Shown: positions 18,485-46,078, counted from the first letter of the stretch. The stretch: DNA of 64,000 bases from Takifugu flavidus (GCF_003711565.1 NC_079534.1:9653991-9717990), one strand, 5' to 3'. The notes: a model not told the origin generated them from the sequence alone. Numbers and translations: made by a program.

Positions 18485-18952
18485 ATGAAGGCAGTTAATT
18501 TGCAGCAGAAAAACGTGACCAAGAGGGAGCAACAGCCCTCAGCATGTGGGGGAAGTTTGTCTTCTAACTATGAACCTCTGAATTTGGAGAACAAATTCTT
18601 AGCTCAGACATCCACAGTGATTCCACAAGCCTGCTCTCTTTTGTTAAACCATGCAGCACAGCCTTCATCTTCTCCTGCTCTCAAGCCCTCCAGCCTGTCT
18701 TCCACATCCTCTTCCCTCCTTTGCACCTCTTCATGTTCATCCTCACTTACATCGCCTCTCCTTAGCACAGAAAACATGCTTCTGTCCAGCCACTCTGTTC
18801 TCACAACTTCTTCCTGCCTTACATCTGTGGCTAATGAATATTTAGTCTCCACCTCCCTCTCCAACACTTCATTCCTTAATCAGTTTGTGCCTGCTGAAGA
18901 TGGAGAAGAAAGCAGTGAAGTAAAGCCATTGTGTTTGGAAGAAACAGGTTTG
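18485..18952 (+). CDS. tep1: tep1 coding exon 1 (ATG 18485; donor TTG|GTAAAT at 18952, alternative CAG|GTTTGG at 18947). N-terminal region with one TEP1-type repeat (EPLNLENKFLAQTS)
   Basis: True ATG immediately after an acceptor-like cacag, which implies an upstream non-coding exon. ORF 18485-19012. Ser-rich low-complexity stretch. Confidence 0.65.
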
Positions 18953-20039
18953 GTAAATAAAACATTCTTTATGGTCATCTTTTACTATTATATTGTTAAT
19001 AATGGTGTTTGATTCAGTTTAATAAATACACTTATACTATTTATGTTATTTAATACTAAAAACTAGAACAAGTCAACATAAGCCTACACAATCTATGTTA
19101 TACACTCCTGAACAAAATTTTAAGAATTCATACTTTGCACTGTTGGATCTTAAGAAGGTTCTAAGGATTGTATAAAAATGCAAAAACAAGAAATGGGAGT
19201 AAACAATTTATTGCAAACAACCATTAAACTGAAATAGACTGTTCATCAGATGATCAAAAGTTTAAGATTACTGTTATGACCTCCTGATGGCAATGGCACA
19301 AAAGCTTTTTCTCTGAACGCAGATGGATTGTTGAGTTACATCATAAAGGCCTGAGAAAATCTCACAGGTGGGATCTCCTTGTCATGCCAGTAACGTTAGA
19401 AGCCATCAGGACTGCCAAGGTTAATTTTTTTCCTCATTGGAGAATAAAACTTTCTTCCACCTTTCAGTGTCCCATGTTTGGTCCTCTTGTGCAAACTCCA
19501 AATGGACAATTTTGTGCCATTGAAGGAGGGAGACAACATCTTTGAGCTTAATTTGGACCAATGTATTGTCCCATGTATTGACAGACAGCCAATTGGATCG
19601 TCAGGCTTAGGGCAGGTGAATTTGTTTTGGCTCTACCACTTGCCTTTTTCCCCTATGACCGTTAATATCTTTTAAAAATTTTAAAACGACTGTTTTACTG
19701 CATCCAACCTAAGCAGGAATAGCGCTCTGCGAGAGGCCTTGCTGATGCAGCTCAACAATTGAACTGCGTTCAAAGAAAGAAAGCTTTACTGCCTTTGCCA
19801 TCAGGAGGTCGTGACAATGTGGGTACCTGACAGAAAAGGACACTGAATCCACATTTTTCATTTCCTGCATAAGAGAAGTCATCTATCCATCTGGCAGCTA
19901 CGTGGATAACTTCTTTTTTAAATGACTATGGGCAAACGGCCTGTAGGGAGTAAATGTTCAGTTTTTCACCATCTCAAGAAAAGTTCTCAAATTTGAAGCT
20001 TTCCTAATACATGTTTGTTTTTTTTAACCTTAAATACAG

Positions 20040-20237
20040 CAACAAATAATTTCAGAAGAAGCTGAACTTTTGGATGAAGGAGATCATGAGGAAAGAGAAG
20101 CTTCAGTGATCTCCATGGAATTAGGTGTCCCAGAAACAGAGGGCAGCCAGCGAGAGTCTGTGGTCATCAGGCACAAAGATTTTGTGGAAATTGATAGAAG
20201 AGAAGATATGACTGAAATGGAGCTTAAAGATAAAAAA
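20040..20237 (+). CDS. tep1: tep1 exon 2 (alternative acceptor at 20056); ...EEAELLDEGDHEEREASVISMELGVPETEGSQRESVVIRHKDFVEIDRREDMTEMELKDKK
   Basis: Acceptor atacag|caa; donor AAA|GTAACA; phase 0/0. Confidence 0.6.
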
Positions 20238-20353
20238 GTAACAAATCTTTTAATTGTATATTTTTTAAATTATGTTTTTGTTATCTAGTAATTTTTTTAT
20301 GTTTTATGTTTTTCTGATAGTTTATCAATGTTGTCTTTCCATCTCTTCTTCAG

Positions 20354-20503
20354 TGTCTCTTGCTGAATGCAGTTTGTTGTTCCTTGGTCAATAAGAGCAT
20401 ACCTCCAGGTCAGAAGGACTGGGACACTGAAAAAAGTGTTTGGACCGTGATTAAAAACATTGCCAGAGACATTTCTGTATCTGACCCACAATTTCTTCTT
20501 AAG
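20354..20503 (+). CDS. tep1: tep1 exon 3; start of TROVE region (CLLLNAVCCSLVNKS...DISVSDPQFLLK)
   Basis: Acceptor ttcttcag|tgt; donor AAG|GTTAGT; like human ...LLEPEFILK. Confidence 0.8.
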
Positions 20504-20707
20504 GTTAGTCTGTGCATGTGTCTGAAGGTGTCTTTATTTTGATCATTTACCTCTTCCTTTAATCTAAACTAATAAATTAAGATTAGCAAATAAGAGAAAT
20601 CTATTTTTATATTGGTCCAAAGCAACCACTGATGATGAACAGTATAGAAGAGGTATAGAACCTTTCATGTAATTGTGTGCTTGTTTTTTTTTCCATCCAC
20701 CATTTAG

Positions 20708-20872
20708 GTGGCTGTTTACACCCGCCAGCAGCTAAACATTCGCATCACTGCTAACTTCTTATTGGCATTGGCAGCCAGTCAGCCCTCCACCAAGCCCCAT
20801 GTTCGCAGATACTTCAGTGCTGCTGTGCAGTTGCCATCAGACTGGCTGGAAGTTGTCAGGATCTATAGTACA
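20708..20872 (+). CDS. tep1: tep1 exon 4; TROVE (VAVYTRQQLNIRITANFLLALAAS...LPSDWLEVVRIYST)
   Basis: Like human ARQQLNVRNVANNILAIAAF...QLPSDWIQVAELY; acceptor catttag|gtg; donor ACA|GTAAAT. Confidence 0.85.
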
Positions 20873-20947
20873 GTAAATACCTGTTGGTTCTTAGTTTTAT
20901 CAGCTTTGTTACATTCTTTTGGTTTTAACTAGTATGTTTGTCTCCAG

Positions 20948-21085
20948 TGTTTCAGTAGCTCTCTGCCAATGTGCTTGAAAAAAGCATTGGTGGACAAATT
21001 CAAGGAGTTCAGTGAATATCAGTTAGCCAAATACAACACACGTAAACATCGTTGTAAACACAACCACAACAAGGGAAAATCCAAG
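20948..21085 (+). CDS. tep1: tep1 exon 5; TROVE (CFSSSLPMCLKKALVDKFKEFSEYQLAKYNTRKHRCKHNHNKGKSK)
   Basis: Like human DKFAQFDEYQLAKYNPRKHRAKRH; donor AAG|GTACGG. Confidence 0.85.
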
Positions 21086-21773
21086 GTACGGAAGCATTGC
21101 TATAGTTGAGCAATATATTACTGTCTGTCATGGCTTACCTTTTTTTAAAATTCACCGTGGTTAAGAAAAGTCATATTGTTATCTTAATAGCTTAATCCAA
21201 TGCCCAAATCCAGTCCTCGAGGGTTACAGGCTGGCCAGGTCTTCTGTCCTACCGGGAAGAAACATGTTCCAGCGTTCTGAAATCACACACTTGTTTTGTA
21301 TTCATTACTCACTAAATAGGGACTTAGCTTCAGTGAACTCCTTAATGCACTCACCGATAAGCTTAAATTCCATTTTCGGACACTCAGTCATGGTGCTTCA
21401 AATGGATCGAATAATAAACACATATCAAATTGATGTTATCGCCAGTGAAATAATTAAATTTGTCTCCTGATTAATTAACAGAAAACACTCACTGGTCATT
21501 TGTATTGTTGCTTTATTATTATGCCAGTATTATTTTATTCTGACGCACCAAAAAATATGCACACTCCCGAGTGCACTATATAGGGTATAGGGGCTTCTAA
21601 TACGGCATGGGTAAAAATTGTTGTTTATCTGCTAGTACAGAAGGCAGAACTACAGCCTTTGAGGACTGGTTTTAGGCACCCATGCCTTAGAGGGAACAGA
21701 CAGTGAAGATGTAAAATAGTTTCCATATAAAATAAAACATTTGTTTGTTGTGTGTGTTATCTTTGATTTTCAG

Positions 21774-21845
21774 AAACCGAGTCATCAGCAGCTGAAGCAG
21801 TGGGCGAACTTGGTCAGATCAGATTCATCTATTCTGTCCAAGTTT
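21774..21845 (+). CDS. tep1: tep1 exon 6 (KPSHQQLKQWANLVRSDSSILSKF)
   Basis: Acceptor gattttcag|aaa; donor TTT|GTAAGT. Confidence 0.75.
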
Positions 21846-22025
21846 GTAAGTTAAAGTTCACTGCTTATTTGATTACAAACTTAGTTTTTATGTTTTATTT
21901 TACATTTGTATTGATCCCAGCAATGTGTCTGGGTTAGCAGTTGTGTAGATTTTATTACATGTTCATGCTTAATTTCAAGACCACCTTTTTGCTTTTTTCT
22001 GTAAAACTCATTTATCTCCCAACAG

Positions 22026-22150
22026 CTGCAGATAACGGAAAGCAAAACAGTTGTTGATAAAAAGCAGAGTGAGTTCAGCTTAAAAAAGATGATCAAAAGG
22101 CTTCATATTAAAGAACCAGCTGAACATGTTATGGCCATCCTTGGAAAAAA
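22026..22150 (+). CDS. tep1: tep1 exon 7 (LQITESKTVVDKKQSEFSLKKMIKRLHIKEPAEHVMAILGK.)
   Basis: Like human FTLKKLVQRLHIHKPAQHVQALLG; donor AAAAA|GTAAGA; ends in phase 2. Confidence 0.8.
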
Positions 22151-22247
22151 GTAAGAAACTCTGAACATTAAATTACATTCTTGAGTTCGACATCATATTT
22201 ATTTCTTCTTATCAAAACACACATGTAAAACTATGTGTTTCTCCTAG

Positions 22248-22405
22248 GTATCCAGCTGACATAAAGGTGTTCACCCATAGTGGAATGAAGGGTGTGTGGG
22301 AGAGAGAAAAAGCAGGGCAGAGAATGAAGCTTAGACAGCCAGAGACATGGGAGCGGCTGCTCAGTCTGAAAGGCAACAATTCCTCCACCTGGGAGAAGCT
22401 TATAG
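22248..22405 (+). CDS. tep1: tep1 exon 8 (YPADIKVFTHSGMKGVWEREKAGQRMKLRQPETWERLLSLKGNNSSTWEKLI)
   Basis: Like human YPSNLQLF...AGKRMKLSRPETWERELSLRGNKASVWEELI; acceptor tctcctag|g; donor ATAG|GTTCAC. Confidence 0.85.
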
Positions 22406-22752
22406 GTTCACATGCAGTTTCTTTTCATTAATTGAAAAAACAAAGAAAAATCAGGTTTAACTGACAAGCTTTTTTAAAAGTGTGAGTGCCTATGATTGAT
22501 ATAAGTTACCTATGAGACTTTTCATTTTTATATCAGTATTTTAGTTTTAGAAATCTATATTAATATATTGTATATATCCTTATTCAGGGATGTATAAATC
22601 TTTGCCCATATGCAGCTGGGATAGGCTCCAGCACCTCGTGAGCCCAAAAGGGATAAAGCAGTCAAGAAAAAAAAATCTGTATAAGGCAGCTATTGATTTT
22701 AAAATCCACACACTGAATGGTAAAAACATTACATTGTCCTCTTTCTGTGTAG

Positions 22753-22862
22753 ACAATAAGTCTCTTCCATTCATGGCAATGCTGAGGAACCTGAGGAACA
22801 TGATTACTAAGGGAATCAGTGAGGCCCATCATAAAAAGATTCTTAGCAGATTGACCAATAAG
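22753..22862 (+). CDS. tep1: tep1 exon 9 ([37 protein letters not shown])
   Basis: Like human [37 protein letters not shown]; donor AAG|GTGACA. Confidence 0.9.
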
Positions 22863-22940
22863 GTGACATGAATTTGCTTGATTGCCATGAGATGGCTTGT
22901 CAGTCGCTTTCTCTGAACTTTGTTTCTGCCACGTTTATAG

Positions 22941-23019
22941 AAAGCTGTTATACAGAGTCGACAGTTCCCCTTCAGATTTCTGGCTGCCTACAAAATCATC
23001 TTGGAGCTTCGCAATTTAG
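22941..23019 (+). CDS. tep1: tep1 exon 10 ([26 protein letters not shown])
   Basis: Like human [23 protein letters not shown]. Confidence 0.9.
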
Positions 23020-23387
23020 GTGAACAAGCACTGATATTTGTAAAATGAAAGAACATTATGATCATAGCAACAGTAAAGATGACATTACGTAAATGATAAT
23101 AACAGTAACAATGGCAATTACTACAATGGTAATCCTGATTATTTTATTCATTTAGGTTTTCCTGGAAATTATATGTATTATTTATATATTCGTTAAATAA
23201 AACCTTCCATTGGTGATATGGTGATATGGTGATATGGGGATGTCTTTGAATTACTGAAATGGTCTGATTAAAGCACTTTCGACGAAATCTGCAACCATCA
23301 CACATTTTAAATTGTGTCAGCAGTGTTGCATGTCTGACATATTCAGCTCATTCTTATTCTTTGCCTTTCTTGTACATTTAACTGCAG

Positions 23388-23574
23388 CATCAAAGCAAAC
23401 TATAACTCCCAGTCAAGACATCCTAAAGGGGATCCTGAAGAAGATCCCTAAGAGTAGACATTTCAGATCTAAGGACTGGGACACAACTTCAAGGAGCAGG
23501 ATCAAGGTCACACTTGGAGTGCCATTTGTGTATCGACAATACCAGCAAAAGAGAGCAGGATTTCAAAAGGCAGT
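23388..23574 (+). CDS. tep1: tep1 exon 11 (ASKQTITPSQDILKGILKKIPKSRHFRSKDWDTTSRSRIKVTLGVPFVYRQYQQKRAGFQKA.). Donor AGT|GTAAGA chosen; alternative GCA|GTGTAA at 23572
   Basis: ORF 23312-23578; phase-consistent with exon 12 acceptor ccag|tcag. Confidence 0.7.
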
Positions 23575-23734
23575 GTAAGAGATTTTGTAATAGCAGTTTG
23601 TTGTGTTTATTGCACATTTGACCCTCCTGTAGAAGGGGAAACCACCTGACGGTCAGCATTTATGGTCAAAATAAAAAATAATTTCTACATGTATTATCAT
23701 ATGTCCTAAGATTTCTGCATTTCTGTTGATCCAG

Positions 23735-24002
23735 TCAGAAGCATTTCAGTGTTGCGCTGTTGGACCGTTACCTTATTGCTCTGGAAACAGCAGTTCAGAT
23801 CTCCTGTCATTACAACGTGCCCCCCCTCCCTGGAAGGACCATTATTCTGCTCTCTGACTGCATAAACAACAACAACAGCCGCCTGAAACAGGACTTCTGC
23901 CTTCCACCAGACCCAGAGCAGAAAGATGACAAAGAGGAGGAGGGACAGCATTCGAGAAGAAGAGAGAGAATCAGACAGGAAGATGACAAGTTGAATCCTT
24001 CT
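23735..24002 (+). CDS. tep1: tep1 exon 12; vWA-like part of TROVE module (VQKHFSVALLDRYLIALETAVQISCHYNVPPLPGRTIILLSDC...)
   Basis: Like human NRYRQALETAVNLSVKHSLPLLPGRTVLVYLTD; donor TCT|GTAAGA. Confidence 0.8.
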
Positions 24003-24078
24003 GTAAGATGCCAGTCTTTGCTTTGTGTGTTGTTGATTAGTTTCACTTGTGTTCCTCATCTCTACCTTCCTGTCTCAG

Positions 24079-24231
24079 GTCTTGGAAGTGGCAGTACTGC
24101 TCTCCCTCATGATTGGGAGCAGTGCTGAAGACTTTAAGCTCTACCTAAGTTTTTGGAGAGGCTTAAAGGAAATCAAGATCGAATCTGATGTTCTGTTGGA
24201 TAATGTCAAAGGTGTAATAAAACAACTTAAG
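24079..24231 (+). CDS. tep1: tep1 exon 13 (VLEVAVLLSLMIGSSAEDFKLYLSFWRGLKEIKIESDVLLDNVKGVIKQLK)
   Basis: Acceptor tgtctcag|gtc; donor AAG|GTCAGT; like human ALLLIGMMITRAEQ. Confidence 0.85.
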
Positions 24232-24373
24232 GTCAGTATTTCTGCTTCTTTTTTTTATTTTTCAAAGATTTTTTTTCTATAGCATTTACACAATGTGATT
24301 TAATAGAAGTAAAGTAAACAAGAAAGCAATAGTACTTTGTTTTTTTTAAATATTGTATGCCTGTCTTTTGTAG

Positions 24374-24433
24374 AATTCTGCCGAGTCTAATGAAGAGGGT
24401 GATTCTCTCTTTACTTTGCTAAAAGGCCAAAAG
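24374..24433 (+). CDS. tep1: tep1 exon 14 (NSAESNEEGDSLFTLLKGQK)
   Basis: Acceptor ttttgtag|aat; donor AAG|GTTTGT. Confidence 0.75.
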
Positions 24434-24879
24434 GTTTGTATTAAACATTGTGTTTTCTTGTTATAATCAGAGTTAAATTGCTTGAACAGAAGTACAAATT
24501 ACACTTAACATCATGGTGGATTTACCTGTAGCCTAATTACCGGTACTTTCATTGATTGACTTATTTTAGAAAAGCTGTATGCTTTGGTGTTTATTAAAGT
24601 TGGTGAGTTAAAAAGGTTTTTATGGAGGAGATGCTCCCATTAAAGACAAGGAAAAGGGTACGCAAAGACAAAAAAATCCTTGTATACTAAAATGGGACAA
24701 ATAAGTACCGGTGTATGTATAGTAACCGCAGGAACAGTTGCCCCATTTCAAGTAAGCTTTTCTTCTTCAAAATCTGCAGATAAGGCTTATTACATGTTAC
24801 CACTCTATTATTTCTTTGTGGTGCCTTCTTTATCTGTCTATGGGACATATCTGACCTCATAATACTCTTTTACTGTCAG

Positions 24880-25004
24880 GTGGACAACATCATTATTTTG
24901 ACAGAATTCTGGCTCAGTGATTATATTGATTGGAGTATCAGCAACTACAGGAAGGATGTAAATGATAAGGCCCTTGTGGTAAAAATATTCATGTCATCAG
25001 AAAG
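24880..25004 (+). CDS. tep1: tep1 exon 15 (VDNIIILTEFWLSDYIDWSISNYRKDVNDKALVVKIFMSSE.)
   Basis: Acceptor ctgtcag|gtg; donor AAAG|GTAATG. Confidence 0.8.
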
Positions 25005-25169
25005 GTAATGTTTGAGTCTGCTACTATGTCTGCTTTCATACAGTTATTTTGTCATCATTGGTTAAACTGCACCTTCAAATGAGCTACGGATTTTTAATTC
25101 AAACTCTCATCATGAGCAAGTACGGTAGTCAAGTCTGACCAGTCGCTTTTCCTTCTATTTTTTTTTTAG

Positions 25170-25232
25170 TGCAGAGTACAATTCTGACAAGAACTGTGTG
25201 AACTTGACAGGGTTCAGTGACCAAATCCTCAG
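25170..25232 (+). CDS. tep1: tep1 exon 16 (SAEYNSDKNCVNLTGFSDQIL.)
   Basis: Like human SGCTDAILKF; donor TCAG|GTAAAA. Confidence 0.75.
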
Positions 25233-25519
25233 GTAAAATTTCTGCTTTGATTTTTTTTTTTAAAGACAAGTTTACATTATATACAAGAAGTATTCACCTA
25301 GCAATCAAAAAATTATGAGCACAGCATGTTTAGTAAGTACTTCTGGGTTTGTAGGGATTAGGTACATTTTACCTTAAGATCAGGAGATTTATAATTTGCC
25401 CAAGTACAGAACATAATATCTCTCTTTGACTTTGTTTTATGTTAACAGTTCAAATCAATGTTTGTTCCATCTGATTTTAACCAAGAAAACATTTCATCCT
25501 GGTGTTAATATGTAACTAG

Positions 25520-25663
25520 GTTTGTGGCAGAGCGAGGATCATCCAGACTACTTGATCATGTGGAGCATATAGACAGGTTATACAATATCCCACCGCCAGG
25601 TGGAGCCAAGGTCCCTGAGACCATAAATACAGTTGTACAAATACCAGTAACGCCACAGTTAAG
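25520..25663 (+). CDS. tep1: tep1 exon 17 (RFVAERGSSRLLDHVEHIDRLYNIPPPGGAKVPETINTVVQIPVTPQL.)
   Basis: Like human IAEHGASHLLEHVGQMDKIFKIPPPPGK. Confidence 0.9.
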
Positions 25664-25740: not shown

Positions 25741-26032
25741 GTGGCGAAGTGTACGTGTGTTTATTTCCTCCACATTCAGAGACATGCATGCTGAGCGTGA
25801 CATCTTAGTACAAAGTGTGTTCCCAGAGCTGCGTCGTCGTGCTGCAGCACATTGTCTCCACATGCAGGAGGTTGAGCTGCGCTGGGGTGTTACAGAGGAA
25901 GAGTCACTTCGAGCCACTGAGCTGTGTCTTTCGGAGGTTTCCCGTAGTCAGATGATGGTGGGAATCCTGGGAGAGAGATATGGATTGGTTCCCCCTAAAC
26001 CAGTTCTTCCTGACCTGCCACAATACAGCTGG
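25741..26032 (+). CDS. tep1: tep1 exon 18; DUF4062-like block preceding NACHT ([31 protein letters not shown]...LPDLPQYSW)
   Basis: ORF 25757-26083; strongest single match to human TEP1; donor TGG|GTAAGA. Confidence 0.95.
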
Positions 26033-27613
26033 GTAAGAGATCACATTCTTAACAACTTTTTATTTATTTTCCCGAGGCAATAAGTTTTACATCTGATGTT
26101 ATGAAGGCACGATACGTACCAATCCTAAAAACACAGTCCTAAAAAGACAGTAATACACATAGCTCATGTAAATATATGGATGCCATATATAGTACTGGTG
26201 ACTGGCATGGGTTGAGTCTGTTAAATAGTCTGATGGCTGTGGGCAGTAAAGACCTGCGGTACTGTTCATTCACAAATCACTGAAGGAGCTGTTCACTGCT
26301 GTAAGAGTGTCCTGTAAGAGGTTGGACATGATCAGCAGGGACATCCTTGTCATCATTCTCCTGTCTCCCATCATCTACTGAGTCCAGACGGCAACCAAGA
26401 ACAGAGCTATTTTGCTGCTGGCTCAGAAAACTATTCCCTGTGGCCAAAAACTGCTGAGTCATCAGAACATCTGAAGACTGCAGGTTGAAGTGGACAAAGT
26501 CAACATTGTAGTGGATGAGGTTGGTGGTGAATCACCCCTGTTATCTACAGCTTGCCCCCAACAGGGTGTTGAGAAATGACAAGATGACAAAAACATGATC
26601 CTGGTGGTACTTATGCTTGGTTGATAAGTGAACTGCTGCAGGTCTTTAAATGAACTCACCAGCAGGCGTAGACCAGGACCAGCTTCACCCATCTTGCTCC
26701 TGAAATAGCTTTTCCATGTTCTGATCCTCCTCCTTTAGTGGCCTCTGTGTGGCTTAGAGCTGGTCCTGCTTAAAAAAAAAACCCACAGTCTTCTCTGTGG
26801 TGCTGGAGGTTGCAATCATTTCGGTCCAATTGTGCTACTTGAGTGTTGCCATTCAAAAATTTGTAAAAGTCTGATCAAATATTGTGATTTTTTTTTCTTT
26901 TTCTGGCATCTTTTAAAGCTAGTCATTAATTTTTTTGTGCCAAACCTTTTTTGATTTGAATGAAAAAAATAATCCTGCTTTTACTATGTTACGTTTTCTT
27001 CTATAGTAGCATGCAAACCTTACTTTTGTTGTATGTGGCAGTTTGTTAAAGGTCCCATATTTTGCAGAGAAAGAAGTATTTCTATGATGCCCCCTGAACA
27101 TGTAATTTTAGTTTGTGCTAGAAATTAGGATCAGATTAGGTGTACAGCATGTCCATCATCTGCTGTTTCAGCTGTATTCAGGACGGGCTGTTTTAGTGTC
27201 TGTAGTTTCACAAATCAGCTGCTGCTTTCTGTGCAACTCCTCATGGCCAAATTTCCCTGTACCAATCCCAACCAATCTGAGGCCAACGAAAGAGTTCAAT
27301 GTGGCTGACAGCAGTAGCTTTTGTGATGGCTTATTTTTACCTGTAAAGGTAGGAAGCGTCATCCACTGATAATTAACTTGCATACAGTTCAAGGAAAAAT
27401 GCTTTATGCATGATATGGGAACTTTATTACCTCTGCAAAACAAACCAAAAACAAAATGTTCAAGTGCAATAACAGGAAAAGTCAAAAATCTACTGTAAAT
27501 TAATTTCAACATGTTGAGAATTTTTAATTTAATAGGCAACCTGTTTCAATGTGTAATATTGTGAGGCAATTCTTCAGGTTATTTATAAGTATAATTTTCT
27601 TGTTCATTTGCAG

Positions 27614-28330: not shown

Positions 28331-28440
28331 GTTAGTTTGTTTGTACATCCAGTGAATGTTAAAATGTTAAAGTTAAAGGTTTTGGTTTAATTTATGACTT
28401 TAAACAACCCATTCTGTTTCTTTTAAGTTAGAATGATACA

Positions 28441-37286: not shown

Positions 37287-37411
37287 GTAATCACTTCACT
37301 TGTGAATGAAAGTTAGGATAATTTTTGCCATTCTGTCAGAATAGATGGGTTATCCATTGTTTAATATACAGGGTGATATCTGTCATTAAATGTTTTTATT
37401 TTATCTTTCAG

Positions 37412-37547
37412 TGTGAAGGAGAACCATGTCTGAAGAAGCAGAAGCTTGTATCACATGACCCTGCTGCTCTGTGTGTGGCTGTGAATGGAGATTGTGTTGC
37501 TGTGGGTTACCATGGAGCTGGTATCAAGCTCTTCAGTCTTGATACAG
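37412..37547 (+). CDS. tep1: tep1 exon 39; WD40 (CEGEPCLKKQKLVSHDPAALCVAVNGDCVAVGYHGAGIKLFSLDT.)
   Basis: Like human LSVALSPDGDRVAVGYRADGIRIYKISSG. Confidence 0.85.
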
Positions 37548-37635
37548 GTGTGGCCACCTGCTAGTAATGTACAAAATTAATAGTTTTTTACTTAAGCAGT
37601 TTACTGATGTGAAGGTTTCCCCATTGCACTCACAG

Positions 37636-37887
37636 GTGAAATGACTAAGACCCCAGAGGTTCTTGATGTCTCTATTTTGTGCATGATGTGGGTCAATATG
37701 GACCATGATGAGGGTGAACCAGAGTTGTTGGTAGCTGGAAGAAGTGACAAATGTGTGGGAGTTTTGAAAAGAAATAAAAGAGAAAATGGAACGCTGGGCA
37801 CCCTGAAGGTGATTGGATTGTGTGGTACTCAACATGGCGACATTTTGGCATTGGCGCAAAATGCCACATACTTGGCCACCGCCTCAG
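37636..37887 (+). CDS. tep1: tep1 exon 40; WD40 (GEMTKTPEVLDVSILCMMWVNMDHDEGEPELLVAGRSDKCVGVLKRNKRENGTLGTLKVIGLCGTQHGDILALAQNATYLATAS.)
   Basis: ORF 37641-37898; acceptor cacag|gtg; donor TCAG|GTCAGT. Confidence 0.8.
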
Positions 37888-37968
37888 GTCAGTGGTAAAG
37901 TGAAAACACACAACATCAGAAGTAGCAGATTTTCTTGTTTATACTTTTCATAATTTCTGTTGATTTAG

Positions 37969-38120
37969 ATGACTGCACTATTGCTCTGTGGTTGCTGAGT
38001 CATCTTTGTGATATGGCCACTCAAGAGCCTCAATCACTGCTGAGCAGCCATAGTGGAGGTGTCACCTGTCTGGCTTTTAGCCCTGATGGTGGTCAACTGC
38101 TGTCTGGTGGAAAAGATCTG
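37969..38120 (+). CDS. tep1: tep1 exon 41; WD40 (DDCTIALWLL...SSHSGGVTCLAFSPDGGQLLSGGKDL)
   Basis: Like human ELRGHEGPVSCCSFSTDGGSLATGGRDRSL. Confidence 0.9.
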
Positions 38121-38436
38121 GTATGTTAATGAATAACCCTTATATGAAATTTTTGGTACATGTGTTATTACAGAATTGCAGATACATCTCGTGGAAAGAT
38201 GCATTTGTCATCCAAAGCATTGGTAGTATTTTACACAAGTGAAATTCATTTGGTGTTTGAACTCACAATACAGGATATGATGTTGCAAGGTTGTGGTCAG
38301 TAATACAGTAATCAGAATGCAAATACCTTTCCTTTACTATAATAGCAGTATTGGAGTTATTTTTTCCTCTGTAATGAATGACAGTTGTGCTTTATTAAAC
38401 TGTCAAGACACAATGAAATTATGACACTCCAACTGA

Positions 38437-38650
38437 AACTAGGGGAACAACCCTACCAACGACCCTGCCAACGACTCTCAGGTGACCACCCAGATCATTT
38501 GCATGCTAATGGTCCACAAGGGTTATATTTTCAAGTTCTGTCCCCAGCGAGTTCAGAACTGAAGAAGCCTTCTGGATAGAAGGCAAAATGTCTTCAAAAA
38601 AGAAAAAAAACAGTCCAGTTGACACAGAAAACTACCTTGGATAACTATGA
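38437..38650 (+). mobile_element. Penelope-like element 3'-tail fragment (second copy of the 10981-11170 tail) in a tep1 intron
   Basis: About 85% identity by eye to 10981-11170 (…GERPYQRLSG.HPDH…GPQG.YFQ.LSPASSE…). Confidence 0.6.
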
Positions 38651-38964
38651 CCTGGATGATTGAGAATCTACACAGACATTATGACACTATTATATCAAAC
38701 ATTTAAATACAGATCCTGCTCTGTAGTGTAAAGAGTTCTAGAAGGATATTATTATTCTTTTGCACAATGCTAATTGTGTTGTATGCTTTTTCCTAGCAAA
38801 ACATGTTCTAGTAGACCAGCAGGAAGAAACCCTTTTATACCTAAGCAATCGTTACAATGTGAAAAATAAATGCCTAATTTGCAGTGCAGTAAATATAAGA
38901 TCGTCGGAGCTAGGGTATGTGATCAAAAGAGTGTTGGAGTAGTAACAGGGTCTCTTTTTTTCAG

Positions 38965-39072
38965 GCTCTGATCGTGTGGGACGTAAGTGGATCCCCTGCT
39001 GTTCTGTCCAAGTCACTCAGTCACGCTCATAAAGACTGGATTACCAGCTGTGTTTGGAGTCCGCATTGTGTG
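38965..39072 (+). CDS. tep1: tep1 exon 42; WD40 (ALIVWDVSGSPAVLSKSLSHAHKDWITSCVWSPHCV)
   Basis: Like human LLCWDVRTPKTPVLIHSFPACHRDWVTGCAWTKDNL. Confidence 0.9.
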
Positions 39073-39183
39073 GTAATTATTTAGTGTATGCCATGAGTGA
39101 ATGTAATTAGCTGTCTTCTCAGGAGTTCCATTTTTAGACATTGTTTTTATATATAGTTTAATTGTCTCCCTTTTCTGTTCTAG

Positions 39184-39288
39184 ATAAGTTCTTCAAATGA
39201 TGGGAGACTTTGTTTATGGGATCTGCAATCAGGCCAATGTCTCAAAGAAATCTCCTGGAAAAGTCGTCTAACATCCGTTTGCTGCTTG
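39184..39288 (+). CDS. tep1: tep1 exon 43; WD40 (ISSSNDGRLCLWDLQSGQCLKEISWKSRLTSVCCL)
   Basis: Like human ISCSSDGSVGLWDPESGQRLGQF. Confidence 0.9.
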
Positions 39289-40461
39289 GTGATTTGATTA
39301 TTTATTCACTAGCTAATTAACAAGGTATTTTTTTTTTTTTAGCTTTTAATTAGCGCTGAACCATCTTTCTGTCCTGGCTGACAGCAGGACACTGTCATCA
39401 TCCTGCTTCACTGTTGGTATGATACCATCACTGGGATGTGTTGCGCACATGATAAACAGTGGCTGAAATTTTGCTGTTTTGATTTAACAACAAACCTTTC
39501 AATGTTGGTTCCATCAGCCCAGAAAATATTCTTATTCCTTTAGCTGTGGCAGGGCGGCCCGCTTATATTGGTGGAGTTGCTGCAGTGACTGCTGACTGTC
39601 TGAAACTTATCATCTGAACACAGGATCTCCGGAGCTCAGCCAGTGGGTTCTTCAACCCAGTGGGCTCTTCACCTACTAGTATATTATACGTGAGGGGCAA
39701 GGAGCAGACAAATAACTTTAACCTCACCTTTTGATACTTCTGTGTACAGCTGTATCTCTATCTCTGGAAGATCTTCAGTTGATGTTCATGGAATTATTGG
39801 AAAGGCTCATTTCAAAAGAAGATTTTAACTTTGTATACACTCTTGATATTTTGATAACATCATAGATTTTTTTGTGTCGGTATAATTATTAATGTCTATA
39901 GTTGTTTTTGAGACCAGAAAGACATTGCAGTGTAGGCTGAAGATAATGTGGATCTGTCTATGTAAACAAATTAATTAAAACCCTTCTACCCTAGATTTCT
40001 CGAAGCTGACTGCACCACCAGTCTCAACGAAATCTTGGCTGTTCCAAAGTTCTTTAATTTCTGAATGGCAAAGACCTTTGTGCTCTTTTGGACCTTTAGT
40101 CCAGCAGAATTTGTTTGTAGCTTTTCCCAGATCTATGTCGTGCCTTTGTCATTTTTCCTCCGATATTGTAAGGTAGACCTTCCATAGACAGAAGTGTGTA
40201 CTTCCAAATCATGGCCAAATAAGTGTAAAAATAGTGTGAGATACCAAAGCAGTGGGTAACACATAAAATGCAATTAATGTATGGACCAATTGGAGCATTT
40301 TCAACTGTGTATGAAGATAGTACATAAAAGTATATATTTTAATGACATCATTGCCGACTACGGTTTGATAGTTGTGGATATAACTGTATTGTAAAGTGTG
40401 AGCTATCTGGAGAATTGAAAAGAGTAATCTTTTGACTCAACTATTACATTTCTGCACCCAG

Positions 40462-40591
40462 GGACAGTATGTGATTGCCAGCTGTTCAGAAGGAATGCTT
40501 CACGTTTGGATGTGGGAATCAAGTGTAGAGATCTGCCACATTTCTGCACATAAACAGCTCATCCATCACTGCACACTTTTGCCAAACACGG
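40462..40591 (+). CDS. tep1: tep1 exon 44; WD40 (GQYVIASCSEGMLHVWMWESSVEICHISAHKQLIHHCTLLPNT.)
   Basis: Acceptor cacccag|gga; donor ACGG|GTAAAT. Confidence 0.8.
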
Positions 40592-40682
40592 GTAAATACC
40601 ATGCAACATAGTAAAGAGCTTAACAATGAATATAGGAAAATGCCTTTGTTAGTTGTTATGTGATCTGATGCTATTTAATCAG

Positions 40683-40768
40683 ATGAGACCAAAGATGATG
40701 GCCCTGAGGAAATAACTGTTTTTACGGCTTCTGAGGATGGTACAGTGCAGCTCTGGAAGCCACTGCAG
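40683..40768 (+). CDS. tep1: tep1 exon 45 (DETKDDGPEEITVFTASEDGTVQLWKPLQ)
   Basis: Like human LTASEDGSVRLWQVP. Confidence 0.85.
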
Positions 40769-40840
40769 GTCTGTCCAAGTGTCTAAATATGAGGACAGAG
40801 TAGATTTTCCATGAATGTAACATCCTGATATTTTATACAG

Positions 40841-40967
40841 GTGCAGCACTTCAGCACCTTCCAGGGTCACAATGCTGCTGTATGTGGAGTTGTTGACAAG
40901 AAAGGACTTTCAGAATTCCTCTCTATTTCTCAAGACTGCACTTTGAGATGCTGGACACTAATGAAAG
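40841..40967 (+). CDS. tep1: tep1 exon 46; WD40 (VQHFSTFQGHNAAVCGVVDKKGLSEFLSISQDCTLRCWTLMK.)
   Basis: Acceptor tatacag|gtg; donor AAAG|GTAATA. Confidence 0.85.
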
Positions 40968-42071
40968 GTAATAATTGATGATCTGTCTTGTACTGTGTGT
41001 TGTGCTAAAACAGTACTGTCTGGTCCATTAAGTAGATTTTAATTCTGAAGAGAAAGATACATTTCTTTTTAGCTCAGATTTTCTATGTTCTGTATGTAAG
41101 AGTTAAACAAAAATATAGAATTCAATTACTGGTGGGAATTAAAACAGAATATAAAGGCTATGTAAAATCAACACCTTTGGTATTTTTAGTGGTGATTTTA
41201 TTACCCCTACCAAAGAGGTTATGTGACAGGCTGCATCTGTCTGTCTGTTTGGAAATGTTGATAGCGGTGTGATTGGTTTATGATCAAAGCCAAGGTGATC
41301 ATACCTACTGCATTACATAACCTTATATTATTACTGCCTTTATATAGTATACTATACTCTAGTAATACTCTGTAATTCAAAATATGTGGGGAAATGACCT
41401 GCTTGGCCGAGGTCTGGAATCGGAGTACTTTTTTGCTAGTTTAGCACACCTTATAACTCCATAAATAAAAACCATGACATTTTATAACTTATCAATAGCA
41501 ATGTTTTTGCTTTACGCTAATTGAAGGCCCCCACATTTATATCTTACCTTCATATTTCAAGAAGAAAAGAATACTTTAACCCCAAAGGTGAAATGACACC
41601 ATGCAGTACCACCGCATCTCGCGAAGAGAGAACATCATAAAAAATAGAAAATCTTAAGAAAAGTTTATTTATTTTAGTAACTGAATTTAAAAAGTACAGT
41701 CCATAATTAGCTAAGTAGAGTGTAAGTAACACCACAGACCTTCACCATCGTACGTTTTAATTACCGTAGATTGTAATTTTGCAAGACACTGAAATTTCCA
41801 TGTCTGTGAGTAATATATTGACTTTTGAATTGCTGTTATTCTAAAATATTTTGCCATGCACTGGCAGCAGGATCATACAATGCAATCACTAAGGGAAAGT
41901 TGTGAGTAAGCTGCCCTATACAGGTGCTCTGAGCATCCTGGCATACCTGGCTAAAGAGCACCTGGGGAGTGCTTTGACAATGTCCCAGCACCTCTACTGC
42001 TCCCACCATCCTAGTTTTTGGCCCATAGCTGAGACTTAAACCAGAAGCCCTCCGACTCCCAGCCTTGTACC

Positions 42072-42773
42072 CTACAGCTCCCCCTTATTTTTCACATTTA
42101 TTATATTTTTAATTGTTTGCAAGGCCATGGTTCTCAACCGGAAAAAGGTGGAGTGCCTTCTCCGGGTCAAGGAGGAGATCCTGCCCCAAGTGGAGGAGTT
42201 CAAGTACCTCAAGTTCAAGTAGAGATTGACAGGCGGATCGGTGCGGCATCCGCAGTAATGCGGACTCTGCACCGGTCCGTAGTGGTGAAGAGAGAGCTGA
42301 GCTGAAAGGCGAAGCTCTCGATTTACCGGTCGATCTTCGTTCCTACCCTCACCTATGGTCATGAGCTTTGGGTAATGACCGAAAGAACAAGATCACGGGT
42401 ACAAGCGGCCGAAATGAGCTTCCTTCATAGGGTGGCTGGGCTCTCCCTTAGAGATAGGGTGAGAAGCTCTGCCATCCGGGAGGAGCTCGGAGTAGAGTCG
42501 CTGCTCCTCCGTGTTGAGAGGAGCCAGATGAGGTGGCTTGGGCATCTAGTTAGGATGCCCCCAGGACGCCTCCCTGGTGAGGTGTTCAGGGCATGTCTCT
42601 CCGGTAGGAGACCCCCGGGAAGACCCAGGACACATTGGAGAGACTATGTCTCTCGACTGGTCTGGGAACGCCTGGGGATCCCTCCGGATGAGCTGGAGGA
42701 GGTAGCTGGGGAGAGGGAAGTCTGGGCTTCTCTCCTTAGGCTGCTGCCCCCGCAACCCGACCCCGGATAAGCG
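42072..42773 (+). mobile_element. LINE-C 3' fragment (5'-truncated RT C-terminus: ...RIGAASAVMRTLHRSVVVKRELS...ERSQMRWLGHLVRMPPGRLPGEVFR...) in a tep1 intron
   Basis: ORF 42375-42770 is about 90% identical to the C-terminus of the minus-strand RT at 51656-52362. Followed by a (GGAT)n tail. Confidence 0.85.
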
Positions 42774-42800
42774 GTAGAGGATGGATGGATGGATGGATGT
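42774..42800. repeat. (GGAT)n microsatellite, 3' tail of the LINE-C fragment
   Basis: ggatggatggatggatgg directly after the RT stop. Confidence 0.85.
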
Positions 42801-42837
42801 TTGCAATCCTAGCTCATCTGTGTGTCTTTCTTCTCAG

Positions 42838-42968
42838 AGACTGCTTCCACTCGGGCAGGACCAGTCACAGCCCTTTGCTTGTCTCCAAAAGATAATCTAC
42901 TTCTTGCTGGCTATGAATCGGGTTTAATTGAGATATGGCAACACACCACTGTGGTCGGCTATAAGCAG
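42838..42968 (+). CDS. tep1: tep1 exon 47; WD40 (ETASTRAGPVTALCLSPKDNLLLAGYESGLIEIWQHTTVVGYKQ)
   Basis: Like human AVAWAPDGSMAVSGNQAGELILWQEAKAV. Confidence 0.85.
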
Positions 42969-43057
42969 GTGAAGACATAGACCATAAAGGAGATGAACGC
43001 TGAACAGGTGCATGTTGGTGTAACTATAAGACACATTTATTGGTATTTATTTGACAG

Positions 43058-43179
43058 ACTTTTAAAAGTGGCATCAGTGCAATCTCCGTCATGCCTGATA
43101 ACCAGTTTGCTGTCAGCTACACAAAACCTTCCATTGATATTTGGAAACTGGTATGGAATCAAAAAAGCAACATTACAAG
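43058..43179 (+). CDS. tep1: tep1 exon 48 (TFKSGISAISVMPDNQFAVSYTKPSIDIWKLVWNQKSNIT.)
   Basis: Acceptor tttgacag|act; donor CAAG|GTAAGC. Confidence 0.75.
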
Positions 43180-44636
43180 GTAAGCAACAGCCAGAGATAA
43201 GTAAGCCACCACTCCAGTCAACAGAATTACTTATTAAAATATTTCATTTCAATTTATTGACATAACCGAGGATAACAAGAGAACTTTTTACAGCAATTGT
43301 GCAATATGTGTGAAGAAAATGCAAGCTAAACCTCGAATATTTGTTTGTTTTAAATGTTACAAAAATAAAAATGCATGACAGTTATTTCAAAGTTTTTATT
43401 GACAACTACACATCAAATAAAACTTTTGATATTGCATCAAATTCTCCTATTAGTTGGTACACTTCAGATAGATTAAACTATAACTATGCCCCTTTATTAA
43501 CTTTCTTTTGTGATAACTTTTGTGATATGATCTTAGGTTCAAATGACCTGAAACGTGAGAGAAACAAATGAGGCAAAGACAACAGTTTTGAATTTTACTT
43601 GGAAGGAGAACGGAGAGATGTGCTCAGTTACAGATCTCCAACACGTTCTGACGCACAACTTCTGCCATCCTTCTTTTATTGAAATTAGGAGGTCCCTAGT
43701 TAGACAGAATTCAAATGTGCCTAAAGGGGGGGGGGGGGGACACAAGATAACAGGTCCCATACAAAGAAAAGACTGTAAATCATAATGGTGAGATTATACA
43801 TAGGTCTTCACTGATTTGATTAGCTTAGCTCGCACACAGCACATTCTTCCATTTCAGACAGATTAAAAGAACACCTCCTGTGTCATGCTCTGCAACTCTA
43901 TCTCCAGTCAATGTCACTTCCCCACAGCAACTGCATTTCTGTCATCCTTGACCAGAGGAGTTCGAGTTCACACATCAAGCATCATGAACATTAAGCATTA
44001 ACAAATAATAAGAAACATTAAGTAATGAGAATCAATATAACAAGAATAAAGAATATAACAAGGTAAAAGTAAATAAGAGATAACTTTAATATAATGGTTC
44101 TAACATATGTATTCAGTATTATTCTATCAGTGTTGGAAAATCAATTCTGATAACTTTGGCAAAAGTCCAAGTTGCAAAACTACAGTTTCATACATTGATT
44201 GTATTGTGCACACTAACCTTTCACTCTGTCCAGTGTCCCAGCTGTCAGCCTGCTGAAGGTGAACACATACAAACTAAAAGAAGCAGCTGTGCGCCTCAGC
44301 TACTGCACGGTCCTCATTGGAGTATCAGAGTCTGGAAGGATATTTCATGTCTCGTCTGAAGAGGAAAATTGGATGCACATAGTCAGCGAGTAAATCTATT
44401 TAGCTTATTCCCTGTCCAGAATGTTAGTGTGGTTATATGTTTGATATTAATTTAAATCTTTGATCTGAACATTTCAGAAACCATAATTTACCAGGCAATA
44501 AAAGCCTTGTGTGCTCTCTGCATTTAAGGATTTGTTTACAACAGGACATGTTTATTGTTGCCTATGGTTTATGTATGCAATGATTGGATTGATTGATTGA
44601 TTAATTCATTCAAATTTGAATTGATTCTCATTTCAG

Positions 44637-44736
44637 TTGGGAGCAGAGAACCAGAATTTTGGGGTTGATTCCAAATGATGAGAAAAGCATGTGGTTGGTT
44701 GGCGAGGAAGCAGGAGAAATTCTAATTGGATTCATT
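44637..44736 (+). CDS. tep1: tep1 exon 49 (SWEQRTRILGLIPNDEKSMWLVGEEAGEILIGFI). One or more small exons between 43180 and 44636 cannot be excluded
   Basis: Acceptor tcatttcag|t; donor ATT|GTGAGC; phase-consistent. Confidence 0.65.
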
Positions 44737-44964
44737 GTGAGCTTCTTATATATACATCATTGTGCTTTTCCAATGAATTATTTCATGGAAGTGTGAGATA
44801 AGATCAATATATTTTCATACAATAAAATCATATGTTTATGTATTAAAATAATTCAAAGTTAGATTTCTGTCAATTTCTTTATAGTACAGAAACAGCCATT
44901 TATACTTTTACAAGTGTTAGTGTACTAAATATTTTTATGTAGTAACTGATGTCCTTGTCCTCAG

Positions 44965-45073
44965 TTTGCCATGGGCCCCCATTATTCATTCCGTTCAGCT
45001 TTTAGCTCAATGAAACTGGAGTCCGGAGATGAGGGAAAGAGTAGCTTGATATCAGCAGTAACTGTAAACAAAG
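44965..45073 (+). CDS. tep1: tep1 exon 50 (FAMGPHYSFRSAFSSMKLESGDEGKSSLISAVTVNK.)
   Basis: Acceptor tcctcag|ttt; donor AAAG|GTATGA. Confidence 0.7.
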
Positions 45074-45192
45074 GTATGACATCATGTCTACTACTAATAA
45101 TGAAAATATGATATCAACTGCCTGAACACCAAAGATTGATTGATCTATCTCTTTCTCTGATTGTGTGATTTTTTTTTGATTTTTTTTTTCAG

Positions 45193-45275
45193 ATTTTGTT
45201 GTGTGTGGAGACGTTCGGGGCAACATGTGGTTCATTCAACCTACAGAGCCTTTCTCATTAAGTAACAGAAAACTT
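45193..45275 (+). CDS. tep1: tep1 exon 51 (DFVVCGDVRGNMWFIQPTEPFSLSNRKL)
   Basis: Acceptor (t)ncag|at; donor CTT|GTAAGT. Confidence 0.8.
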
Positions 45276-45459
45276 GTAAGTTGTGCCAAGAGACGTGCAA
45301 AATGAGTCAAAATGCTTTTAATTAAATTTGAGAAAAATCTCATGTTCAGTAATTTTCTAGATCATTGATGGTTATTGATACAACAAATGTAAAGTCACAA
45401 CACCTCAGTTACAGTATAATCTTGTAGAACATTTTGTAATGTTGTTTTTATTCCCCCAG

Positions 45460-45564
45460 GTTCATAATGACAGGATCAGCGTGCTGAGAGTAACCGAGCA
45501 AACCATCATCTCAGCCTCTTACGACAGGACAGTGAAGCTGTGGGACAGAGACACCAAAAAGCAG
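45460..45564 (+). CDS. tep1: tep1 exon 52; WD40 (VHNDRISVLRVTEQTIISASYDRTVKLWDRDTKKQ)
   Basis: Like human IHSGSVTALHVLPELLVTATKDRDVKLWERPSMQ. Confidence 0.9.
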
Positions 45565-45958
45565 GTTCGGCACATCATAGAACAAATACTGCACACACCC
45601 AGGGACACGGAGACATTTATGTTTTTGTGCATTAAATTTTGCAGGCTGATGGGTGAAATATAAATATTAGATCTGATTAGTATTTGACTGGTGTTACAAT
45701 AATTAAATAATGAAAAAAAATCTAAGTAAATTAGTGTAATTTTTATTGTTTTTTAAATCAAAGAACATTCTGAAATTCTATGGATTATAAAACCTAGTAG
45801 TTCATTTATTGTAAATAAACTTTAGCAATTGTAGTAATTCACTTCTCTCTATAGTCCCCTTGTCAAGCTTATTCAATATATAAACCAAGCGCATTTCTTG
45901 CACAGCTTCATTATACCTATAGATAAGTTTTTACATCTCTTTTTGTCTCTTCTCCCAG

Positions 45959-46078
45959 GTGGGAATGTTCATGTGCGAAGGGCCTGTTGTACATTTGGAG
46001 GTGAACCCCGCAAATCCAACAGAACTGGTTTGCGGTGATGGACAGGGCAATCTTTACTTCCTCACCTGGACACAATAA
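45959..46078 (+). CDS. tep1: tep1 terminal exon 53 (VGMFMCEGPVVHLEVNPANPTELVCGDGQGNLYFLTWTQ*), stop TAA 46076-46078
   Basis: Like the human C-terminus LGLFRCEGSVSCLEP...AVGDVQGNVYFLNWE*. Confidence 0.92.
   Translation: MGMFMCEGPVVHLEVNPANPTELVCGDGQGNLYFLTWTQ

Follow-up and report, generated by a model that had tools for sequence, protein, structure and literature searches.

Along the plus strand of a 64,000-nucleotide (nt) stretch of Takifugu flavidus DNA (GCF_003711565.1 NC_079534.1:9653991-9717990, hereafter the window), many short open segments lie between 18.4 and 46.1 kilobases (kb). Do these segments form one gene, and if so, which? An initial annotation had joined them into a complete orthologue of TEP1 (telomerase protein component 1), a TROVE-NACHT-WD40 protein associated with vaults. 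Our data agree with this view: to judge from the sequence, the locus is almost certainly an intact, complete TEP1 orthologue of the pufferfish with about 55 coding exons. The gene appears to be complete and functional, and the copy looks single. It is an ordinary orthologue of a long-known gene in a well-annotated lineage, with no departure from the family. As a discovery it carries little weight, teleost TEP1 orthologues being routinely annotated; its modest practical value lies in an exon model, checked by hand, for a TEP1 gene that is very compact.

The coding region extends over 27.6 kb from the ATG at 18485, the first ATG past an in-frame stop, to position 46078; the TAA stop codon (46076-46078) was read directly, and strand and both ends agree exactly with the earlier proposal. 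In the best gene model (v3), 55 coding exons (7,743 nt) encode 2,580 amino acids (aa) plus the TAA. All 54 introns are of the GT...AG type, and neither internal stops nor frameshifts interrupt the single phase-consistent frame, which bears out the canonical junctions claimed before. Introns range from 60 to 1,870 nt (median 190). The G+C content is 0.459 in exons versus 0.355 in introns, in a eukaryotic, fish-like window that is AT-rich overall (about 37-40% G+C) and contains GC-rich islands, which are retrotransposons.

Spliced alignment to TEP1 references

The exon chain was determined with a purpose-written spliced protein-to-genome aligner, a GeneWise-like dynamic programme that uses BLOSUM62, allows GT/GC-AG introns in three phases and applies simple splice-site weights. 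Full-length references (2,500-2,900 aa) were retrieved by searching the concatenated clearest exons against a representative library of 1.84 billion proteins. References named 'telomerase protein component 1' at NCBI were those of Polyodon spathula (XP_041095472.1), Protopterus annectens (XP_043914013.1), Elgaria multicarinata (XP_062994042.1) and Trichomycterus rosablanca (XP_062873352.1). The gene model was chosen by comparing reference chains, splice scores and reading frame.

Each of the nine TEP1-like references gave one co-linear spliced chain on the plus strand. Reference P0122 aligned over residues 1-2616 of 2618 (spliced score 5,589-5,681), and Polyodon TEP1 over residues 14-2519 of 2521. 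The scores are far above those of the controls, which were 123 for the reversed protein, 95 for the shuffled protein and 76 for the true protein against the minus strand. This protein-to-genome comparison, which the initial annotation had proposed as a check, supports a complete orthologue, as do the Pfam gathering thresholds passed by the conceptual protein.

The annotated fish and tetrapod TEP1 proteins (Polyodon, Protopterus, Elgaria, Trichomycterus and the characiform KAL7832341.1) align co-linearly over their full length with 34-51% identity, and for about 46 exons both boundaries are shared by most references reaching them. They diverge from the window protein mainly in the N-terminal 250 aa and across aa 2360-2480. 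For a previous version of the model (v2), shorter by 5 aa, identity was 51% to P0122 over 2,421 aa and 43% to Polyodon TEP1 over 2,625 aa. The nearest relatives, at 72-75% identity, are partial 'TROVE domain-containing' predictions from Hippocampus, Kryptolebias and Mugilogobius.

Before any gene model was available, Pfam searches of single open segments returned TROVE (20708-20932 and 22590-22871), DUF4062 (25757-26083) and WD40, and Beta-prop_TEP1_C matched the raw segment 45439-45663 with an E value of 2e-15. A tblastn search with a human TEP1 sequence gave 21 essentially co-linear hits on the plus strand, covering residues 292-2626, and was used only as a lead. This sequence, which we take to be human TEP1, is about 34% identical to the model over 2,229 aa; it guided exon finding, and no conclusion depends on it alone. 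Its numbering agrees with published residues, e.g., R908, R954, R976 and E1008. A blastn comparison with two related fish loci (L001 and L002) detected the well-conserved exons alone and left those of weak conservation undecided. With the DUF4062 exon as query, a word-indexed protein search yielded short fragments of open reading frames (ORFs) from fish contigs and zero full-length references.

Exon structure

The coding exons of model v3, all on the plus strand, are given below. Fractions are the references using identical bounds over those covering the exon, among the nine TEP1-like references.

Exon 1, 18485-18952: 468 nt, aa 1-156; N-terminus fits MKAV/MRAL of P0122/P0123
Exon 2, 20040-20237: acidic; 198 nt, aa 157-222; exact 2/5
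Exon 3, 20354-20503: 150 nt, aa 223-272; exact 5/7
Exon 4, 20708-20872: 165 nt, aa 273-327; exact 9/9; TROVE match on the raw ORF
Exon 5, 20948-21085: 138 nt, aa 328-373; exact 9/9
Exon 6, 21774-21845: 72 nt, aa 374-397; exact 7/7
Exon 7, 22026-22150: 125 nt, aa 398-439; exact 9/9
Exon 8, 22248-22405: 158 nt, aa 439-492; exact 9/9
Exon 9, 22753-22862: 110 nt, aa 492-528; exact 9/9
Exon 10, 22941-23019: 79 nt, aa 529-555; exact 8/8
Exon 11, 23388-23574: 187 nt, aa 555-617; exact 8/9
Exon 12, 23735-24002: 268 nt, aa 617-706; acceptor 8/9, donor 24002 in 3 references; followed by a 76-nt intron
Exon 13, 24079-24231: 153 nt, aa 707-757; donor 6/6; acceptor 24079 scores 9.6
Exon 14, 24374-24433: 60 nt, aa 758-777; exact 5/6
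Exon 15, 24880-25004: 125 nt, aa 778-819; exact 7/8
Exon 16, 25170-25232: 63 nt, aa 819-840; exact 7/7
Exon 17, 25520-25663: 144 nt, aa 840-888; exact 8/9
Exon 18, 25741-26032: first part of the DUF4062/TIR-like NADase domain; 292 nt, aa 888-985; exact 6/9
Exon 19, 27614-27735: predicted catalytic glutamate E999 (codon GAA, 27653-27655); 122 nt, aa 986-1026; exact 5/7
Exon 20, 27904-28017: 114 nt, aa 1026-1064; exact 6/7
Exon 21, 28213-28330: end of the TIR-like domain; 118 nt, aa 1064-1103; exact 5/8
Exon 22, 29659-29847: NACHT Walker A GGPGEGKT (K1162, codon 29833-29835); 189 nt, aa 1104-1166; exact 6/6
Exon 23, 30506-30693: 188 nt, aa 1167-1229; exact 7/7
Exon 24, 30782-30920: Walker B-like AFLVDGVD; 139 nt, aa 1229-1275; exact 8/8
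Exon 25, 31110-31289: 180 nt, aa 1276-1335; exact 8/8
Exon 26, 31482-31574: 93 nt, aa 1336-1366; exact 7/8
Exon 27, 31794-31929: 136 nt, aa 1367-1412; exact 6/7
Exon 28, 32032-32191: 160 nt, aa 1412-1465; exact 5/6
Exon 29, 32776-32909: 134 nt, aa 1465-1510; exact 5/5
Exon 30, 33010-33098: 89 nt, aa 1510-1539; exact 5/7
Exon 31, 33476-33590: 115 nt, aa 1540-1578; exact 6/6; a 115-nt exon also in locus L002
Exon 32, 34196-34222: probable micro-exon; 27 nt, aa 1578-1587; in 4 references; acceptor 17.5, donor 7.7
Exon 33, 34306-34516: 211 nt, aa 1587-1657; exact 6/7
Exon 34, 34745-34865: start of the WD40 region; 121 nt, aa 1657-1697; exact 6/7
Exon 35, 35652-35776: 125 nt, aa 1698-1739; exact 7/7
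Exon 36, 35870-35969: 100 nt, aa 1739-1772; acceptor 7/7; donor 35969 (AAG/GTTGGT) scores 3.6
Exon 37, 36030-36185: 156 nt, aa 1773-1824; donor 7/7; acceptor 36030 scores 10.0 versus -4.8 for 36049
Exon 38, 36460-36669: 210 nt, aa 1825-1894; exact 6/7
Exon 39, 37233-37286: 54 nt, aa 1895-1912; exact 4/6
Exon 40, 37412-37547: 136 nt, aa 1913-1958; exact 4/6
Exon 41, 37636-37887: 252 nt, aa 1958-2042; exact 6/6
Exon 42, 37969-38120: 152 nt, aa 2042-2092; exact 6/7
Exon 43, 38965-39072: 108 nt, aa 2093-2128; exact 6/6
Exon 44, 39184-39288: 105 nt, aa 2129-2163; exact 5/6
Exon 45, 40462-40591: 130 nt, aa 2164-2207; exact 4/5
Exon 46, 40683-40768: 86 nt, aa 2207-2235; exact 4/4
Exon 47, 40841-40967: 127 nt, aa 2236-2278; exact 4/4
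Exon 48, 42838-42968: 131 nt, aa 2278-2321; exact 4/4
Exon 49, 43058-43179: 122 nt, aa 2322-2362; exact 4/4
Exon 50, 44249-44389: bounds uncertain; 141 nt, aa 2362-2409; 5 references overlap
Exon 51, 44637-44736: bounds uncertain; 100 nt, aa 2409-2442; acceptor 44637 scores 4.2
Exon 52, 44965-45073: 109 nt, aa 2443-2479; exact 4/4
Exon 53, 45193-45275: 83 nt, aa 2479-2506; exact 3/4
Exon 54, 45460-45564: 105 nt, aa 2507-2541; exact 3/6; Beta-prop_TEP1_C on the raw ORF
Exon 55, 45959-46078: ...GNLYFLTWTQ and TAA (46076-46078); 120 nt including the stop, aa 2542-2580; acceptor in 4 references

The initial annotation had counted 53 exons and 2517 codons, which no combination examined reproduced. 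Depending on the reference, chains comprised 52-57 segments, and a true number of 54-56 exons is plausible. The C-terminus also needed correction: the protein ends in ...GNLYFLTWTQ, two residues beyond the ...GNLYFLTW given before.

Frame, site strength and conserved motifs settled the bounds of exons 12, 13, 36 and 37. Acceptor 24079 of exon 13 retains the conserved EVAVLLSLM block in frame; acceptor 24041 broke the frame (92 stops), and 24120 would remove this block. The intron between exons 36 and 37 (35970-36029) is the shortest in the gene and, with 60 nt, near the lower size limit of vertebrate introns; it is needed because the conserved WD-repeat motif ...LKVWSS... thereby stays in frame. 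The junction 35973/36049 was a product of the 68-nt minimum intron setting, with site scores of -11.2 and -4.8, and was replaced by 35969/36030. Two 'introns' within exon 12 (23918-23974 and 23860-23910), which scored poorly and relied on GC donors, were rejected as artefacts of skipping a lineage-specific insert.

For exon 1 we took the donor at 18952 (alternatives 18947 or 18882) and for exon 2 the acceptor at 20040 (alternatives 20080 or 20125); both choices are uncertain. The related loci L001 and L002 support a direct join between exon 1 and the acidic exon. Two additional exons between them, 19751-19818 (seen with P0122 alone) and 19526-19615 (P0124 alone), were discarded; both have weak sites and are missing from the L001/L002 chains. 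The length of micro-exon 32 is a multiple of 3, and it is therefore not needed for the frame; it is not clearly mirrored in L002, a diverged fish locus. Micro-segments at 33736-33759 and 24283-24294, each from one reference, were regarded as gap-filling artefacts of the aligner. The alternatives for exon 50 (acceptor 44249 or 44234, donor 44389 or 44381) are all frame-compatible if rightly paired. For exon 51 the donor at 44736 (GTGAGC, score 2.8) was selected because homology to P0122 stops there; 44790 is possible.

A pyrimidine tract followed by CAG (TTTCTCTACACAG, 18472-18484) directly abuts the ATG. Its resemblance to a splice acceptor makes it probable that the 1.1-kb intergenic region upstream of 18485 contains a non-coding 5' exon. 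At the other end, a pattern scan on the plus strand found two AATAAA motifs at 46194 and 46283 (span 46194-46288). They are putative polyadenylation signals, and their positions imply a short 3' untranslated region.

Domain architecture of the predicted protein

A Pfam run on the conceptual protein placed TROVE, DUF5920, DUF4062, NACHT, APAF1_C and both TEP1 propeller families above the curated cutoffs, in the order TROVE, vWA-like DUF5920, DUF4062, NACHT, helical domain and WD40. The succession of TROVE, DUF4062, NACHT and WD40 blocks in the initial annotation was thus correct. The domains, all encoded on the plus strand, are as follows.

20447-23834, aa 254-650, exons 3-12: TROVE (PF05731), E 9e-113, 378 bits, profile positions 47-442 of 442
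23997-25610, aa 705-870: DUF5920, vWA-like, after TROVE (PF19334), E 2e-20, 73.7 bits versus a cutoff of 27
25742-28324, aa 889-1101: DUF4062 or TIR-like (TeTIR, NIR) NADase domain (PF13271), E 5.5e-15 over aa 893-1001; also PDB 11gz_A
29803-31244, aa 1152-1320: NACHT NTPase (PF05729), E 1.5e-11, 44.8 bits versus a cutoff of 26.7
33057-34454, aa 1526-1636: APAF1-type helical domain APAF1_C (PF17908), E 1.3e-7, 32.1 bits versus a cutoff of 22.8
34752-46075, aa 1660-2580: WD40 beta-propeller array (WD40, PF00400), E 1e-40
aa 1986-2234: Beta-prop_TEP1_2nd (PF25047), E 7e-44, 120.8 and 150.3 bits versus a cutoff of 89
aa 2508-2578: Beta-prop_TEP1_C (PF25048), E 8.8e-45, 151 bits versus a cutoff of 32

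The NACHT motifs lie at aa 1156-1163 (Walker A, GGPGEGKT) and aa 1248-1255 (Walker B-like, AFLVDGVD). Human TEP1 (2,627 aa) is almost as long as the fish protein and has its domains in the same order. It differs from the fish protein by the absence of a charged insert in the vWA-like region, and the fish gene is compact (27.6 kb). The insert (…EQKDDKEEEGQHSRRRERIRQEDDKLNPS) is encoded in exon 12 (23900-24002). It is missing from the tetrapod, paddlefish and catfish references. The Kryptolebias prediction P0123 has a similar one, which makes a restriction of the insert to percomorph fishes probable.

Putative NADase domain and proposed mechanism

Recent preprints describe the DUF4062 domains of human, mouse and zebrafish TEP1 as glutamate-dependent NADases (10.64898/2026.05.01.722283, 10.64898/2026.09.04.749371, 10.64898/2026.09.21.753143), and those of sponge and Dictyostelium TEP1 are likewise active (2026 preprints). 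The human domain is active inside vaults, and this activity depends on E1008. The isolated zebrafish TeTIR domain yields nicotinamide and ADP-ribose in a glutamate-dependent manner (10.64898/2026.09.21.753143). By mutagenesis of human TEP1, activity was found to require F902, R914, R942, C959, R976 and E1008. It was likewise lost with S905E, a result that the authors attribute to a steric effect, and R908 and W943 contribute less (2026 preprints).

A search of solved structures matched fish aa 889-1101 to human TEP1 (PDB 11gz_A, 'Telomerase protein component 1') with an E value of 1e-67. In the HMMER alignment, all nine residues that mutagenesis showed to matter in the human domain are kept. 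Fish F895, S898, R901 and R907 correspond to human F902, S905, R908 and R914, fish R935, W936, C950 and R967 to human R942, W943, C959 and R976, and fish E999 aligns with the catalytic E1008. The first eight of these are encoded by exon 18. The predicted protein would also share its catalytic glutamate (E999) with zebrafish TEP1, a teleost orthologue tested as a NADase. A percomorph fish thus retains every residue on which the TIR-like NADase activity of human TEP1 has recently been shown to depend.

The best-supported mechanism is that of TEP1 elsewhere, by homology to the mammalian and zebrafish proteins. The TROVE and vWA-like module would bind small RNAs with defined structure (vault and telomerase RNA) and direct the protein into vaults. 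A STAND-type scaffold for oligomerisation and sensing would be built from the P-loop NTPase NACHT, a helical domain resembling that of APAF1, and the WD40 propellers. The DUF4062 (TeTIR/NIR) domain ahead of NACHT would act as a TIR-like NADase that hydrolyses NAD+ and is activated by oligomerisation.

The initial annotation had likened this architecture to immune STAND proteins, a comparison in line with the 2026 preprints, in which DUF4062 (TeTIR or NIR) is a TIR-like NADase employed by bacterial anti-phage systems, where it serves as the NAD+-depleting effector. NWD1, NWD2, APAF1, plant TNLs and bacterial Avs/NIR STANDs follow a common logic of effector domain, STAND NTPase and repeat sensor; none of them has the TROVE module that fish TEP1 possesses. 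It is conceivable, although unlikely in our estimation, that pufferfish TEP1 acts in immunity or stress as an NLR-like receptor gated by RNA, in which TROVE-bound RNA licenses NACHT oligomerisation and thereby switches on the TIR-like NADase. If so, it would parallel plant TNLs and bacterial Avs-NIR systems on the vertebrate side, and a compact 27.6-kb Takifugu gene lacking the mammalian N-terminal repeats would mean that the core mechanism can do without them. Three 2026 preprints already follow this idea for human TEP1, and the locus would therefore be a comparative data point, not a discovery. PADLOC models of bacterial defence proteins gave marginal P-loop matches and nothing meaningful in the DUF4062-NACHT region of the fish protein.

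The search with the DUF4062 exon also matched DUF4062 proteins from metagenomes and from a 'bacterium' label, with 50-60% identity to the fish exon, some of them named 'telomerase protein component 1' by JGI. They may stem from eukaryotic sequence within metagenomes or may be genuine NIR/TeTIR domains of prokaryotes.

Weighing the TEP1 assignment

Several observations weigh against an intact TEP1 orthologue that works like its relatives. Three stretches of the predicted model are not fixed, namely the junction of exons 1 and 2, the 27-nt micro-exon and exons 50-51. An exact database look-up of the window ORF matched no Takifugu TEP1 protein. We infer RNA binding, vault association and NADase activity of the fish protein from its orthologues. 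Relative to human TEP1, the BB loop of the fish protein is shorter by two residues and does not keep R954. Finally, the N-terminal 270 aa have no Pfam match even at E<=10, and the TEP1_N repeat of 30 aa, which opened the block order in the initial annotation and is present in human TEP1, was not detected; by eye, we could make out one or two degenerate copies of the motif L-x-x-EN-x-x-L (LNLENKFLAQ and LSTENMLLSS, at aa 32 and 94). Since the fish references also lack clear repeats, we infer that the TEP1_N repeats are a mammalian elaboration and not a family-wide requirement. This percomorph TEP1 keeps the NADase residues and shows no detectable N-terminal repeats, which lends support to the view that what TEP1 conserves is its NADase-STAND core rather than the repeats.

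A decaying or unexpressed pseudogene might look intact. Small defects might go unnoticed in exons 50-51 and in the N-terminus, which is poorly conserved, and the gene model was built from genomic sequence and protein alignments. We nevertheless consider this very unlikely, since a 7.7-kb coding sequence is free of stops and frameshifts, 54 of 54 introns follow the GT...AG rule, and both the catalytic residues and the Walker A motif have been kept. The contrast in G+C content between exons and introns and the exon conservation in related fish loci also fit selection.

The same domains could belong to another DUF4062-NACHT-WD40 STAND gene similar to NWD1 or NWD2, in both of which these domains co-occur, and generic WD40 families also match. 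Alternatively, a Ro60-like gene could have been mis-joined to its neighbour. Ro60 and bacterial Rsr share TROVE followed by a vWA-like domain, and the TROVE proteins PDB 9l5y and 9kop match weakly (E 6e-6). However, Ro60 and Rsr stop after the vWA domain (about 500-540 aa, no NTPase), whereas the fish frame runs on through DUF4062, NACHT and WD40. TROVE and DUF5920 are spliced in frame to DUF4062-NACHT by exons whose exact bounds recur in the references that span these junctions (6 to 9 of the nine), both TEP1-specific propeller families exceed their thresholds, and the alignments take in the references named TEP1 from their first residue to their end. Such an origin is highly improbable, and the predicted protein is TEP1, not Ro60, NWD1/2 or APAF1. 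That the exon chain arose by chance, AG and GT being frequent and short open segments common in AT-rich sequence, is refuted by the controls (123, 95 and 76 versus more than 5,500) and by single-exon Pfam and tblastn matches that are significant by themselves, which leaves this explanation with a negligible probability.

Neighbouring gene and repeats

Upstream of TEP1, a complete gene of four exons for a znrf1/2-like RING E3 ubiquitin ligase lies on the minus strand (14457-17362). Its exons are 99-100% identical to Takifugu rubripes znrf2 (P0277):

17362-16835, minus strand: znrf1/2-like exon
16037-15936, minus strand: znrf1/2-like exon
15844-15743, minus strand: znrf1/2-like exon
14513-14457, minus strand: znrf1/2-like exon

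Such identity marks the source of the window as Takifugu or a very close relative. Both genes are arranged head-to-head. Because their start codons are 1.1 kb apart, they may share a bidirectional promoter. In the goby Mugilogobius, the one genome compared, TEP1-like and ZNRF proteins have adjacent locus tags. No gene was found downstream of TEP1 within the window, and Rfam and tRNA scans of the whole window were empty, with no vault RNA or other known RNA gene.

The remainder of the window contains LINE-like ORFs for reverse transcriptase and endonuclease as well as Tc1/mariner fragments, and two elements are located inside TEP1 introns. Tc1/mariner transposase fragments (Pfam DDE_3) of near-identical protein sequence were found at 28433-29071 (plus), 70-800 (plus) and 58228-59057 (minus); the first of them lies in sense orientation in TEP1 intron 21. 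A retrotransposon tail fragment at 42033-42767 (plus) occupies intron 47, the largest intron. Its protein is nearly identical to the C-terminal part of the reverse-transcriptase ORF 51571-52362 (minus), which belongs to the element 51571-54024 (minus); by sequence the two are inverted copies of one LINE-like family, about 9 kb apart.

LINE-like elements at 5967-8982 (minus) and 46703-49019 (plus), with 51-58% G+C and endonuclease and reverse-transcriptase ORFs of 520-547 aa, account for the G+C peaks of the window. The latter begins about 600 nt past the TEP1 stop. A (TCTG)35 microsatellite (46343-46481) is located 265 nt downstream of this stop, directly past the second AATAAA, and (TC)45 and (TA)24 runs are present further downstream at 48884-49018.

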